Assembly: GCA_031432155.1 (NCBI GenBank)
Contig: JASJPP010000020.1
Coordinates: 1-41,798 of the forward strand
Length of the DNA stretch: 41,798 bases
Direction: 5' to 3'
From: Patescibacteria group bacterium
GTDB taxonomy: Bacteria > Patescibacteriota > Minisyncoccia > UBA6257 > UBA9933
Below the pieces are notes generated by a model. The model saw only the letters and a program-made list of their open reading frames with translations, made no database searches and was not told the DNA's origin. The translations under genes and the position numbers were made by a program. Shown one piece after another: positions 37,156 through 41,798 of the stretch. Numbering within the stretch: the first letter of the stretch is position 1; the number at the start of each line of letters is the position of its first letter.

Positions 37156-37362
37156 TCTGGCGGTGTTTGTTGGACAAAGTTCGAAACTATTTCGAGCAAA
37201 ATCCAAATGATTAAAACGAATAATGCGGACTCGGCAGGGCGAAACAATTTGTCTGGGGGAAAGGATTCGCCCTGCCTCGACTGATTTCCCGCCCGCAGGA
37301 GGGGTCTGGGGAGGAATGCGGGCGGGATTCGGACTGGGGGTTTTCGGAAATTCGGCGGCTAC
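37156..37362. repeat. 207-bp inverted repeat, outer arm
   Basis: Exact reverse complement of 39914-40120. Confidence 0.97.
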
Positions 37363-37718
37363 TATCTGAAAAATCCAAAATGACTTGCCACTGCGATATA
37401 AATTAGGGCAAGCACAAAAAATATCGCAAGCCCCGCTAGAATTGCATTGTGAGAACCAATCTTTGGCGAAAGATACGCAACGGCGAGCATATACGGAACC
37501 CATGACACAAGCGTTCCAACAAGCACCCATTTGGCATGTTGGCTAACCGCCACGCTTCCCTGTGTTTGCCCGATAAAAAAATATGCCACGAGAGTAAATA
37601 CGGGAATAAGCGTGGCAAGACCGGAAAGTGTCCTTTGCCCGCTTTCTTCAAGTGCCACGATAATCGTGGTGAATAATCCGCCAGTGATGAAATAAATAAT
37701 GAGGTTTGAGATGTTCAT
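37362..37718 (-). CDS. Small 4-TM membrane protein (DUF3147/GlpM-like)
   Basis: F..GGL.......E......SGL....P pattern; stop codon abuts the IR. Confidence 0.65.
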   Translation of the reverse strand: MNISNLIIYFITGGLFTTIIVALEESGQRTLSGLATLIPVFTLVAYFFIGQTQGSVAVSQHAKWVLVGTLVSWVPYMLAVAYLSPKIGSHNAILAGLAIFFVLALIYIAVASHFGFFR

Positions 37719-37721
37719 ATA

Positions 37722-38876
37722 TTAGCGTGTCTTTTCTTTACCTTCCAAAATTTTTCTATACAATGCAAGAGTTTTTTCAATCATCACATCTGATCTAAAT
37801 TGTTTTGCAGTTTCTTTCGCAGATGAGGCCATACGATGTCGCAACGGAGTATCTCTGAGTAATAGATTTATTTTCTCCTCAGCTTCTTCCTGGCTATGAA
37901 CAATAAACCCATTCTCTCCGTTGCTGATAATTTCAGGGGCTACACCGACAAAAAAACTAATCGGTACTAAGCCTTGCGACATTGCTTCAATCAAACTCAA
38001 CGAAAATCCTTCATAACGCGAAGTTAAAAGCGCGATGCCCCCCGCATATTTTTGAAGTAAAGTTGGGATACTGTCTTTTGCGGCATTCGCTGTGATGGAA
38101 TGACTTGGAATATTATCTTTCATCCACTTCACTAACTTTTTATTTCGTGACATTACCACTGAAAACTTTTCAACTCCAGGAAACCGTTCAAAAAGCCAGA
38201 TAAGTCGGTCAACTCCTTTTAGTTTCAGCGTAAATGGGTCTTCTCCGATTCTGCCAAGAAAAACAAGAGCTGGGTCATTTTTAAAATTTACATTTGAAGT
38301 CTCAAACCAATAATCCTCAATAGCATTGTGAATAACTTCGATTTTTTCGGTTGCAATACCAACTCCAACAAGATCCCTTTTTACTATTTCTGATGTTGCG
38401 ATAATATAATCCGCGTGCTCTGCCGCATACTGCTCAATGGAAGCGATGTCGTTAAGTGGACGGCGTGTTTTTATGTTCAGTTCGCGGATTGCGCCAGCTT
38501 GTTTTAAGCGGAGAAAAACTTCACTGCATCCGTTTTCCAAAAGGTTCGTTTTCGGCACGGCTCGCAAAAAACCAACGGTAGTCGATCCAAAATGCGATAC
38601 GACTGGCTTGGAAAAACGGAGAAAAGCGAGCGGGGTGTATGTTGTTCCCTGAATAATATCGTGCCGTAATATCTCATTGCGTTTTTCCAGCAGAGAATAA
38701 AAAAAGAGAATATTATTGATACCCTTAAAGTGGACGGGCGTATCAGAAAGCAAAAATTGCGGATAGAAGTTATTTACCTCCGCGCCTTTTTCGCGCAGTT
38801 TGCACGCGATAAGATCATTGATGAAATGTGCGCCTGTTCCTATTTTTTTGTCGCTATGGATAAATGCAATTTTCAT
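37722..38876 (-). CDS. GT-B/GT4 family glycosyltransferase
   Basis: VIHNAI, FLGR, KGVD, SRYEGFSLSLIEAMSQGL, EII.NGENG. Confidence 0.9.
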   Translation of the reverse strand: MKIAFIHSDKKIGTGAHFINDLIACKLREKGAEVNNFYPQFLLSDTPVHFKGINNILFFYSLLEKRNEILRHDIIQGTTYTPLAFLRFSKPVVSHFGSTTVGFLRAVPKTNLLENGCSEVFLRLKQAGAIRELNIKTRRPLNDIASIEQYAAEHADYIIATSEIVKRDLVGVGIATEKIEVIHNAIEDYWFETSNVNFKNDPALVFLGRIGEDPFTLKLKGVDRLIWLFERFPGVEKFSVVMSRNKKLVKWMKDNIPSHSITANAAKDSIPTLLQKYAGGIALLTSRYEGFSLSLIEAMSQGLVPISFFVGVAPEIISNGENGFIVHSQEEAEEKINLLLRDTPLRHRMASSAKETAKQFRSDVMIEKTLALYRKILEGKEKTR

Positions 38877-38879
38877 AAT

Positions 38880-39807: not shown

Positions 39808-39913
39808 AGTATCCAAATTTTGATAGTATTATCTTATGAGAAGATTCTTTCTTTGCTCACAAAACAATGATAGCAAAAATTATGGATTTTATCAATCTGT
39901 ATTTTCTGATTTT

Positions 39914-40120
39914 GTAGCCGCCGAATTTCCGAAAACCCCCAGTCCGAATCCCGCCCGCATTCCTCCCCAGACCCCTCCTGCGGGCGGGAAATCAGTCGAG
40001 GCAGGGCGAATCCTTTCCCCCAGACAAATTGTTTCGCCCTGCCGAGTCCGCATTATTCGTTTTAATCATTTGGATTTTGCTCGAAATAGTTTCGAACTTT
40101 GTCCAACAAACACCGCCAGA
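39914..40120. repeat. 207-bp inverted repeat, inner arm
   Basis: Exact reverse complement of 37156-37362. Confidence 0.97.
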
Positions 40121-40232
40121 AATCGAAATCGCATTTTGAAGCCGAAATGGGGTCGGCACGAAGTGCCGACACAAATGTATTCCCCCCAAAAAATCCAGAA
40201 TCCAAAAGGGTTTTCCACGCTCCGCGTGGCTC
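40113..40232. repeat. 120-bp inverted repeat, inner arm (copy of the recombinase 3' end)
   Basis: Exact reverse complement of 41632-41751; 40233-40245 additionally matches 41541-41553. Confidence 0.97.
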
Positions 40233-40251
40233 CTCGTTTGCCAATACAATT

Positions 40252-41798
40252 ATGAAAAATCAAACCAAAAAGTTTTTTATTTATACTCGCAAGTCTACGG
40301 ACGACAAAGACAGACAAGTCCGCAGTATTTCTGACCAGTTAGCGGAACTGAAAGATTTGGCGTTGAAAGAACAACTAGAAATTGTTGATGTCTTTGTCGA
40401 AAAGCAGACCGCCAAAATACCGGGTCGCCCAGTATTTAACGAAATGATGGAAAGAATGGAAAAAGGTGAGGCGTCTGGTATTTTGGCGTGGCATCCCGAT
40501 AGACTTGCTCGCAACTCGGTAGATGGAGGAAAAATTATCTACCTCGTTGATACTGGTGTCATTTCAGAAATGAAATTTCCAACTTTTTGGTTTGATCCGA
40601 CACCGCAAGGAAAATTCATGCTCTCAATCGCTTTTTCGCAATCCAAGTATTATGTGGATAATTTGAGCGAAAATATAAAACGAGGTCATCGCAACAAAGT
40701 GAAAGACGGAATATGGCCTCAAATGGCTCCGCTCGGATATGTGAATAAAAATAGAAAGATTATTCCCGACGAAAATATCGCACCTTTAATCAAGAAAACA
40801 TTTGAGGCATATTCGTCTGGGTCTTTCACTTTGCGACAGCTTCGAGACAAATTTAATGCAATTGGATTGAAGCGAAAAAGCGGAAAGGAACTTGCGGTGT
40901 CGAATTATCAAAAACTTTTGAAAAACCCGATTTACACAGGATTGATGTTGTATAACGGCGAAATCCACGAAGGCAAACACGAACCGATTATCACAAAGAA
41001 ACTTTTTGATTCCGTTCAGGAAGTGATGATGAGAAAATCTAAACCTCACTCCAAAGGACTAAAGCCATTTTTGTATAGAGGATTTTTCCGTTGTGGAGAA
41101 TGTGGCTGTTTTATCACCACCGAAACACAAAAAGGTCATAACTATTTGCGATGTACCAAACGGAAAAATCCTTGCTCACAAAAATATACTCGTGAGGAAA
41201 TCATCACTTCCGAAATTCAAAAGGAAATCAAAAAAGTTTCTTTGCCAGACGATTGGGCTTCTTGGATGTTGGCGGAAAACGAAAAAGATAAATCAGTGGA
41301 AGCCCAATCGTCTACGCTTTTTGCGGATAAAACAAAAGCCGATATTTCTCTTTTGGATTCTAAAATTGAGAAGCTGATGAACGCTTATCTCGAAAATGCT
41401 CTTTCGCTAGACGAGTATCGAAATATGAAAAACAAACTTGTGAATGAAAAACAGCTTCTCAAAGAGAAATTATCGGCTTTTGAGCAAAAAGCGAATAATC
41501 GGTTCGAACTTACCGAAAAGTTTTTGAAATACAATATGGAATTGGCAAACGAGGGAACAAATGAAGAAAAACTTCATTTGTTCAAAAAAGTCGGTTCGAA
41601 CTTTCAAATTAAGGATCGAACCGTACTTTTTGAGCCACGCGGAGCGTGGAAAACCCTTTTGGATTCTGGATTTTTTGGGGGGAATACATTTGTGTCGGCA
41701 CTTCGTGCCGACCCCATTTCGGCTTCAAAATGCGATTTCGATTTCTGGCGGAGGCGGGAGGATTCGAACCTCCGAAAGGATTGCTCCTTTAACATCTT
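40252..41798 (+). CDS. Large serine recombinase (resolvase, recombinase and zinc-ribbon domains); no stop within the window
   Basis: IYTRKSTD catalytic Ser, GRP.F..M, WHPDRLARN, APLGY, L.NP.YTG, GKHEPII, CGECG..C..C, coiled coil, KVGSNF; reads into tRNA antisense (WRRREDSNLR). Confidence 0.93.
   Translation, partial: MKNQTKKFFIYTRKSTDDKDRQVRSISDQLAELKDLALKEQLEIVDVFVEKQTAKIPGRPVFNEMMERMEKGEASGILAWHPDRLARNSVDGGKIIYLVDTGVISEMKFPTFWFDPTPQGKFMLSIAFSQSKYYVDNLSENIKRGHRNKVKDGIWPQMAPLGYVNKNRKIIPDENIAPLIKKTFEAYSSGSFTLRQLRDKFNAIGLKRKSGKELAVSNYQKLLKNPIYTGLMLYNGEIHEGKHEPIITKKLFDSVQEVMMRKSKPHSKGLKPFLYRGFFRCGECGCFITTETQKGHNYLRCTKRKNPCSQKYTREEIITSEIQKEIKKVSLPDDWASWMLAENEKDKSVEAQSSTLFADKTKADISLLDSKIEKLMNAYLENALSLDEYRNMKNKLVNEKQLLKEKLSAFEQKANNRFELTEKFLKYNMELANEGTNEEKLHLFKKVGSNFQIKDRTVLFEPRGAWKTLLDSGFFGGNTFVSALRADPISASKCDFDFWRRREDSNLRKDCSFNI
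41632..41751. repeat. 120-bp inverted repeat, outer arm (within the recombinase CDS)
   Basis: Exact reverse complement of 40113-40232. Confidence 0.97.
41746..41798 (-). tRNA. tRNA-Ser 3' part, truncated by window end
   Basis: Long variable arm AAAGGA-GCAA-TCCTTT, T-arm GGAGG-TTCGAAT-CCTCC, acceptor CGCCTCC, G discriminator, CCA; anticodon outside the window. Confidence 0.88.

Follow-up and report, generated by a model that had tools for sequence, protein, structure and literature searches.

A two-module large serine recombinase element integrated at tRNA-Ser(GCT) in a Patescibacteria genome

Elements that integrate by a large serine recombinase (LSR) have one attP, which is split on integration; why, then, does an element at the right end of contig JASJPP010000020.1 from a Patescibacteria genome (GCA_031432155.1) hold an inverted, already joined copy of both its ends in its interior? 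The window analysed here is the whole stretch of 41,798 nucleotides, which is an entire contig (C20) of the 652,727-base, 49-contig genome of an ultra-small groundwater bacterium, and the element lies at 37156-41751. It is a complete integrated two-module LSR element at the 3' end of tRNA-Ser(GCT), in which one module is the LSR gene within 120-bp R arms and the other is a cargo operon, led by an XRE-type regulator, within 207-bp L arms.

Ends, arms and sites of the element

A repeat search of the window returned two inverted pairs, 37149-37373/39903-40127 (225 nt, 96%) and 40113-40232/41632-41751 (120 nt, 100%), from which blastn defined exact blocks. The outer L arm (37156-37362, plus strand) is the reverse complement of the inner L arm (39914-40120, minus strand) over 207 nt at 100% identity, and the outer R arm (41632-41751, plus strand) is that of the inner R arm (40113-40232, minus strand) over 120 nt, also at 100%; the two blocks overlap at 40113-40120. 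The core TCTGGCGG stands on the plus strand at 37156-37163 (the attL crossover region) and at 41744-41751 (the attR crossover region), with its complement at 40113-40120, where blastn and the core alignment place the minus-strand core CCGCCAGA at the centre of the joined R arm/L arm site. Of this core, only GCGG is common to all relatives. Since the repeats are perfect over 120 and 207 nt, a chance origin is excluded. The initial annotation, made from the letters alone, had noted the shared core and the internal inverted copy of the joined ends (39914-40232; 207 + 120 bp), and blastn matched these exactly. It had also foreseen an excision circle of about 4,588 bp with loops of about 2.55 and 1.4 kb; the sizes predicted from the repeat coordinates are 4588, 2551 and 1399 bp.

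The LSR gene (40252-41798, plus strand) begins just beyond the inner R arm, which ends 20 nt ahead of the start codon, and its frame crosses the right core into the tRNA with no stop before the contig end. The protein has 533 amino acids as integrated (counted over the overlap of contigs C20 and C21) and 516 if R precedes L. Three Pfam domains, all above cut-off, were found in it, i.e., Resolvase (PF00239, 6e-19), Recombinase (PF07508, 4e-14) and a zinc ribbon (PF13408, 4e-7), and its sequence has weak, distant similarity to the SPbeta and A118 integrase chains. The outer R arm starts where conservation of the LSR protein ends, matches to paralogues stopping near residue 470, and thus codes for a poorly conserved C-terminal tail; its tip is a P-type half-site.

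When aligned on the core, the sites fall into three kinds. The first runs from the R arm through GCGG into the acceptor and T arm of the tRNA, the second from the R arm through GCGG into TGTGTATTGGACGAAGTTCGAA, which is the L arm and the P' half, and the third from a flank through GCGG into the same L arm, the left flanks being unrelated between genomes. No variation in GCGG is seen among 121 aligned R arms. The 3' part of tRNA-Ser(GCT) (41746-41798, minus strand) is a B'-type half-site with its T-arm TTCGAA 11 nt from GCGG, whereas the first ~25 nt of the outer L arm form a P'-type half-site with TTCGAA 16 nt from GCGG, followed by two GC-rich hairpins; the R half is too variable to score. 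According to PMC11722253, a 5-bp shift of the zinc-ribbon-domain motif toward the centre separates attB from attP half-sites in large serine integrases, and TTCGAA lies ~5 bp nearer the centre on the tRNA side here, which matches this rule. By the site grammar and the TTCGAA shift, the internal site is a complete inverted attP, and the ends are an ordinary attL (flank/L) and attR (R/tRNA). As is usual for LSR elements, the sites share a short core, and the element ends exactly at the core beside a conserved target. The departure is that attP is not consumed, as a whole R/L site persists at 39914-40232 and in 114 scored copies among the relatives described below. The inverted attP between the modules sits in the divergent intergenic region of the XRE and recombinase genes. 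The proposal of a tRNA-Ser-targeting, serine-recombinase-encoding element with an internal inverted full attP, belonging to a family, is thus supported.

Relatives across Patescibacteria

Pattern scans for the LSR returned 260 relatives with one genome taken per species, of which 80 (LSR 80-95% identical in amino acids) were fetched, and more than 556 in metagenome contigs, of which another 80 were fetched; with the window, the locus set comes to 161. The fetched relatives from species genomes are almost all metagenome-assembled genomes of Patescibacteria, some of them binned under other names. At least 150 nt upstream and the 3' end of the gene, as needed to evaluate the R-arm repeat, were present in 123 loci. 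The repeat brackets the LSR in 120 of these (median 120 nt), with 100% identity in 67 and at least 98% in 91; the test that the initial annotation had put forward, an inverted copy of the recombinase 3' end just upstream of the start codon, is therefore positive in nearly the entire evaluable set. Loci without a scored R-arm repeat are L051, L111 and L132. Unrelated DNA lies upstream in L111; L051 and L132, two independent loci, carry an extra stretch of ~130-150 nt between the inner R arm and the LSR start codon.

Among loci with 3 kb or more of upstream sequence, 41 of 57 have the L-arm repeat around the cargo; the count is 37 of 50 where this sequence reaches 5 kb, and 12 of 12 where it reaches 7.5 kb. 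Many contigs begin within the inner L arm, as would be expected of a ~200-nt repeat that exceeds the assembler word size. The cargo modules that could be measured (n = 47) span 1008-6863 nt and have arms of 75-298 nt, and both repeat pairs are present in two chromosome-level records (L021 and L060).

This recurrence bears upon the least demanding explanation, a chimeric inverted join made by the assembler, which the position of the feature 47 nt from the end of a contig in a 49-contig draft might invite. The probability of such an artefact is practically negligible, as the same structure is seen in the 120 loci from many assemblers and studies, including the interior of contigs longer than 100 kb and the two chromosome-level records, and the arms differ between loci yet match within them. 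The contig end is itself accounted for: the last 53 bases of the window are the minus-strand 3' part of tRNA-Ser(GCT), the remainder being on contig C21 (55-nt overlap with the end of the window), and the break falls there because the 3' halves of tRNA-Ser(GCT) and tRNA-Ser(CGA) have sequence in common. ARAGORN misses tRNA-Ser(GCT) on the window alone since the gene is cut. Logan contigs from four runs of four studies bridge the junctions of flank and left arm (36665-37187, run X2) and of cargo and internal arm (e.g., 39648-39932, run X1). Altogether 20 sequencing runs containing the element were found, all as Logan contigs and none of them RNA, of which these four were aligned to the window. 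This evidence consists of assembled contigs rather than reads, one run may be the source sample, and since inversion between perfect repeats makes no new words, the contigs are uninformative on isomers. The view that the design reflects a family and not an accident is accordingly upheld. Loose ends at 41742 were considered as an empty site and rejected, being the downstream sequence of tRNA-Ser(CGA) on contig C28. A search for an empty-site pair, using the left flank (35000-37155) against 40 relatives, matched only one genome, at 68% over part of the query, and so yielded no pair with and without the element.

Downstream of the R arm, the partner is a tRNA in 118 of 146 cases, an L-type arm in 4 and other sequence in 24, several of the last being cut or decayed tRNA ends or mis-placed cores. 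The anticodons of the target tRNA-Ser genes are GCT (36), GGA (32), CGA (27), TGA (25) and ACT (6). ARAGORN placed a tRNA-Ser(ACT) beside the elements of L016, L046, L048, L056, L067 and L080, often paired with a tRNA-Ser(GCT). ACT is an unusual anticodon for bacteria, and this tRNA may be either a genuine isoacceptor in these lineages or a copy that is associated with the element. The R arm is also joined in some loci to a conserved, non-tRNA stretch of ~55 nt with GGTTAAGTACCC, which follows the arm in L019, L093, L133, L143 and L154 and precedes it in L030. In L143 and L154 this stretch leads into genes for a ParB-methylase, a small-terminase-like and a weakly large-terminase-like protein, with a second LSR in L154; possibly, it represents a related prophage inserted between the element and the tRNA. 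Matches to LOOT RNA (RF03000) above the gathering score lie near the elements in L133 (8886-9006) and L154 (2978-3102), and an Rfam scan of 12 loci found nothing but tRNAs and this RNA. Across the window, Rfam at gathering thresholds gave tRNAs alone, and hence no known RNA in the arms. A viral origin was considered and set aside: a pattern scan of IMG/VR for relatives of the LSR found none, and in phage and plasmid collections nothing exceeded the '<60%' band, the matches listed having 24-29% identity.

The layout extends beyond close relatives. An LSR match at E <= 1e-50 was found in 112 of 301 evenly sampled genomes of the phylum, and 20 paralogue loci were fetched from genomes with such a match. 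Among paralogues at 40-61% identity, a repeat brackets the LSR in 15 of 17 loci (L166 and L173 being without it), and most also have a second pair around neighbouring cargo; their targets are tRNA-Ser, Gln, Leu, Asn, Ile and Ala. Paralogues at 30-32% identity also sit at tRNAs and have the bracketing repeat in 0 of 3 loci, and L177, at 35% identity, has a single repeat pair, which encloses the element as a whole. A second complete two-module element was noticed in the same genome, on contig C28 (509-7466) at tRNA-Ala(GGC), with an LSR 47% identical to that of the window, a 133-nt repeat around the LSR, a 366-nt repeat around 4.4 kb of cargo and the shared core TGTGG; L012 holds a further two-module element at tRNA-Ala. 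An XRE gene is divergent from the LSR in at least 7 paralogue loci and in L177, and so the XRE-LSR pair looks ancestral and the inverted attP looks inserted between the two. Comparative evidence of this kind shows the layout to be conserved in a clade of Patescibacteria LSRs which targets several tRNAs.

Orientation, module exchange and mobility

If the internal site reacted freely, both orientations of each module would be expected. We scored the partner at the start side of the LSR in 174 copies and found the L arm in 114, a tRNA in 4 (5 with L132) and other sequence in 18, the partner being unavailable in 38. Likewise, XRE stands at the side of the internal site in 33 of 35 loci, the cargo being inverted in L045 and L054; an earlier count over 19 loci had given 16 of 17. 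Rearranged forms do occur, and they break exactly at the cores: the LSR module lies between two inverted tRNA-Ser genes in L016 and L046; L132 has a tRNA beside the LSR start and an L arm after the LSR end; L056 and L142 have a tRNA beside the LSR start, the other side not being assembled; and R/L direct junctions occur in the arrays L022, L085, L086 and L112/L114. Rare isomers therefore exist, and the orientation is strongly biased, which means that the element is not a rapid flip switch. The initial annotation had suggested that cargo and recombinase flip independently and that integration takes place in either configuration; both ideas are contradicted by these counts.

The same counts weigh on the possibility that the recombinase often flips one or both modules, as phase variation of the recombinase or of a restriction-modification cargo. 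In Hin, inverted sites with identical inner halves and cores flank the segment in which the serine recombinase gene lies, and Hin, Gin and Cin are small serine invertases with 26-bp sites, an enhancer and frequent flipping. Our element has the geometry of such an invertible segment, with identical inner half-sites and core and different outer halves; rare inverted isomers are known for the cargo (L045, L054) and for the recombinase module (L132, possibly L056 and L142), and the cargo is often a restriction-modification system. In contrast to the Hin group, the enzyme here is an LSR integrase of 516-533 amino acids, the arms are at least 120 bp long, the outer halves are attP and tRNA halves, and the orientation is biased (114 to 4-5 for the recombinase module, 33 of 35 for the cargo). 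Moreover, the directionality of canonical large serine recombinases, as PMC11722253 describes it, bars attP from recombining with attL or attR, and site-specific flipping would not hold arms of 120-340 bp identical. An invertible switch is hence very unlikely.

The arms evolve in concert. Within an element their identity has a mean of 98.7% and a median of 100%, against a median of 75.8% between elements, and the best match of the downstream arm is the element's own upstream arm in 88 of 101 elements. The R arm contains two hairpins, H1 (41635-41649), with an invariant stem, and H2 (41694-41712), with compensatory changes at 4 of 8 pairs and three pair types at one position; paired cells make up 97.3% in H2 against 87.4% in shuffles, a control which relatedness inflates. 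As these compensatory changes fall in coding sequence, nucleic-acid structure of the R arm seems to outweigh the peptide. The 3-nt loop of H1 is GGA in most arms and TCC, TCT or ACT in L093, L025, L044, L071 and L001; TCC is the complement of GGA, as though the loop had flipped between the two arm copies.

Modules are exchanged between elements. Across 83 loci, the R arms form 13 clusters and the L arms 17, and 28 pairings of these are seen; in L129, an LSR module of the main family is joined to a cargo module whose arms are of the type found in the tRNA-Leu-targeting family. The 203 cargo open reading frames fall in 129 clusters, of which XRE alone is shared (35 of 47 loci); ten cargo representatives searched in Pfam are mostly restriction-modification or defence genes (type III Res/Mod, GmrSD-HNH, EcoRI-type and C5 methylases, Mrr, and TdeIII). 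The cargo swapping that had been predicted from the window fits both the 28 arm combinations and the 129 clusters. Where the LSRs are 80-95% identical, the XRE proteins of the elements have identities of 24 to 97%; XRE was considered as a directionality factor and dropped, as this range fits a module-specific DNA-binding regulator and not a partner of the LSR.

Could each repeat-bounded module then be a mobile unit of its own, and the internal site a mere junction of neighbours? Every module carries two matching arms, and R and L types combine freely, as in L129; there are orphan cargo modules lacking a recombinase (window 1-4577 and contigs C19, C39 and C34) and recombinase modules lacking a cargo neighbour (L016, L046), and the 35%-identical L177 has one repeat pair around the entire element. 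However, conservative serine recombination cannot excise a segment between inverted sites unless the central dinucleotide is palindromic, the cores GTG (L169) and TGTGG (C28) of paralogues with the same layout hold no palindromic dinucleotide, a tRNA/P' junction is found in none of the main-family loci, and no solo module circles were seen. We consider independent modules unlikely. A palindromic central dinucleotide as the cause of the symmetry is countered by the same paralogue cores and by the missing tRNA/P' junction; it may hold for the tRNA-Ser family alone, whose GCGG contains GC and CG. When compared with insertion sequences and transposons, each module has terminal inverted repeats and orphan modules exist, but the flanking cores are an inverted recombination core and not a duplication.

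We think it probable that the two-module element moves as a circle which integrates by attP x attB at the tRNA, and that its internal attP is live over evolutionary time and not a fast switch. The LSR would integrate the circular form at the 3' end of the tRNA and take the T-arm TTCGAA, which is 5 bp closer to the centre than its L-arm counterpart, for its zinc-ribbon-domain motif; the tRNA end would be restored by the R arm. The occupied R/tRNA junction would remain a usable target, and arrays of elements would pile up beside the tRNA. Any attL x attR excision would yield the 4588-bp circle with two inverted attPs. Over longer times, modules would reassort at the internal attP, which could also react with other tRNA-Ser genes, and the identity of the arms would be maintained by gene conversion between nearby inverted repeats or by a need for intramolecular pairing. 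All rearranged forms are derivable from attP x attB and attL x attR acting on an element that retains attP, provided that R/tRNA is still a target, and the arrays would be explained by that same provision.

The predominance of one isomer may come from selection: the LSR would stay under an XRE-controlled promoter, convergent with the tRNA, whereas the mirror isomer would place it under the tRNA promoter. A unique spacer (39801-39895) has two overlapping divergent promoter-like sites, one on the minus strand (39895-39867) toward XRE and one on the plus strand (39801-39829) toward the internal site and the recombinase; these are consensus matches only, and 13 such sites were found in the region against 9.1 expected.

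Several points weigh against this account. Two identical attPs on the circle predict about equal use, and the start-side counts are far from equal (114 cargo arm, 4-5 tRNA). In this genome, three tRNA-Ser genes are unoccupied in the presence of the internal attP, for which reason the internal site is silent or tightly repressed here. Arms of 120-340 bp far exceed what an LSR needs, and the model leaves their length unexplained. L166, L173 and L111 are without an R-arm repeat, and the promoter calls used for the selection argument are consensus matches alone. In the assembled contigs, which are blind to inversion, no circle junction, excision product or isomer mixture was directly observed, and no recombination directionality factor was identified.

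Single-strand self-pairing is a rival to this account. Perfect arms would fold one strand into a dumbbell, a form that the initial annotation had named, in which the internal site splints the 3' end of R to the 5' end of L; flap trimming and ligation would then give a closed circle with a double-stranded attP, with no need of excision or a directionality factor. The input strand could be, e.g., DNA from natural transformation or any single-stranded transfer form; Patescibacteria are thought to rely on DNA uptake. A comparable principle operates in the CTX phage attP(+), where two inverted XerCD sites, spaced by ~90 nt, pair in single-stranded DNA into a duplex site. Our element resembles it in having two inverted site copies able to base-pair into a duplex site from one strand, and differs in its serine recombinase and kilobase loops, the CTX phage using tyrosine recombinases and single-strand exchange. 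Self-pairing is favoured by an internal site that, as far as the core, is exactly complementary to the joined ends, by arms 2-6 times the length of an LSR site and kept identical, and by an arm hairpin conserved through compensatory changes even in coding sequence. It also agrees with the lack of an evident directionality factor, the sole conserved accessory gene being a regulator that travels with the cargo. The 80-95% identity of the LSR across distant Patescibacteria lineages points to a transfer route that needs no machinery of the element's own, and no close LSR relative appears in the phage, plasmid or IMG/VR collections. On the other hand, there is no direct evidence of a single-stranded form, and the hosts are only presumed to be competent. 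Were a serine recombinase to act on the stem of the dumbbell, the chromosome would be broken into hairpin ends, so that second-strand synthesis is still needed; this synthesis restores a circle with two equal attPs, and the orientation bias is again unexplained. We give only a small chance to self-pairing, and an equally small one to the element being a self-splinting, transformation-adapted single-strand vehicle whose circle is rebuilt with no excision, directionality factor, relaxase or capsid. If true, self-splinting would explain the phylum-wide spread of one recombinase at 80-95% identity.

The topology of the predicted circle, in which two long inverted repeats with recombination sites would separate two unique segments, also recalls the yeast 2-micron plasmid, and the initial annotation had raised amplification of the circle by inversion during replication. 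Topology is all that speaks for it. The 2-micron plasmid has a tyrosine recombinase (FLP), an origin, a partition system and a known amplification function, whereas the recombinase here is a serine enzyme; no replication initiator or origin-like feature was found in the element or in the 129 cargo clusters, of which the ten representatives were searched in Pfam, and no replication or partition family was found in the element or in these ten. The cargo is variable as well, so no conserved replication function can sit there. Amplification is extremely improbable, as no cargo examined holds a replication gene.

The preferred account, integration by attP x attB with the internal attP retained, joins known and new parts. 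With LSR elements and prophages of the phiC31, Bxb1, A118 and SPbeta type, the element shares a three-domain LSR, a short attP/attB core and restoration of the target gene end, as well as the half-site motif 5 bp nearer the centre on the bacterial side, as PMC11722253 describes it. Unlike them, it keeps a second complete inverted attP inside and brackets the recombinase gene and the cargo with perfect inverted repeats of 120-340 bp, and the best LSR identity among the phage and plasmid matches listed is below 30%. Tycheposons of Prochlorococcus are reportedly small integrative elements at tRNA sites of streamlined genomes, with variable cargo and accumulation in islands. They belong to another phylum and have another recombinase clade, and we know of no inverted internal attP or repeat-bounded modules in them. 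A literature search, with subscription journals outside its scope, found no account of an LSR element that keeps an inverted attP inside, nor of repeat-bounded modules in Patescibacteria. Of the parts, the LSR, its targeting of tRNAs and the attP/attB logic are already known; the architecture and its phylum-wide spread appear new.

Two-module LSR elements appear to be a major gene shuttle of Patescibacteria, and the element bears on gene exchange in organisms with tiny genomes and few known plasmids or phages. If functional, it would represent a new architecture of site-specific mobile DNA, in which an integrase element retains its attP at all times and is made up of symmetric, exchangeable cassettes. 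Natural LSRs with tRNA targets and a built-in inverted site pair have the very geometry that engineers use for cassette exchange.

Cargo, remnants and neighbouring modules

The cargo of the element in the window is read on the minus strand. XRE, an HTH regulator (39610-39816), is the first gene of the module and the sole cargo gene common across the family, and it is followed by genes for a 241-amino-acid MUG113/T5orf172 domain protein with a homing-endonuclease-associated repeat (38880-39605), a 384-amino-acid group-1/family-4 glycosyltransferase (37722-38876) and a 118-amino-acid membrane protein (37362-37718) which Pfam assigns to the GlpM family at the cut-off.

Older material lies further from the tRNA. 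At 29549-29595 there is a solo relic of an L arm, GGCGG followed by a diverged P' half, 83% like the arm of the element, and from there to 34411 we found a 311-amino-acid open reading frame and a type III restriction-modification pair. The type III Res protein of the window is 97% identical to one in the cargo of L122 and is also found in the cargo of L012, L043 and L092. The stretch 29549-34411 appears to be what is left of an earlier element of this family, once at the same tRNA and since displaced from it, and so illustrates the proposed piling up of elements. Between this remnant and the element (34976-36977) are an AAA_21 ATPase (403 amino acids), an RloB-like protein (178 amino acids) and a 67-amino-acid open reading frame; the ATPase and the RloB-like protein are a candidate two-gene defence pair, and a relative of the short frame (72%) is present in L140.

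The left end of the window had been described as a diverged version of the same design. Positions 1-24 are the 3' end of a tRNA-Leu(GAG), and 1-4577 hold two XRE-led modules (~25-2938 and 3098-4462) bounded by inverted repeats, with arms at 91-170/2823-2902 and 3098-3173/4385-4462. A site is directly repeated at 2917-2957 and 4537-4577, and the cargo consists of small membrane proteins, one of them DUF6804. The arms match the L arms of the tRNA-Leu-targeting paralogue L169 and of L129, and the junction with tRNA-Leu is not a clean core junction. No recombinase was found in 1-4577, the genome having only two LSR genes. The XRE-led, repeat-bounded modules do support a family, as claimed; the region is, in the absence of a recombinase, an array of orphan cargo modules and not a second complete copy of the design.

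Other modules were noticed elsewhere in the genome. Contig C19 (42-5777) carries a 5.7-kb module with 333-nt inverted arms beside tRNA-Ala(CGC), at both outer ends of which a 52-nt perfect palindrome stands between the arm and the tRNA; this palindrome is possibly what remains of a recombinase module that collapsed. Contigs C10, C15, C25, C27, C34, C35 and C39 carry repeat pairs that are similar but shorter.

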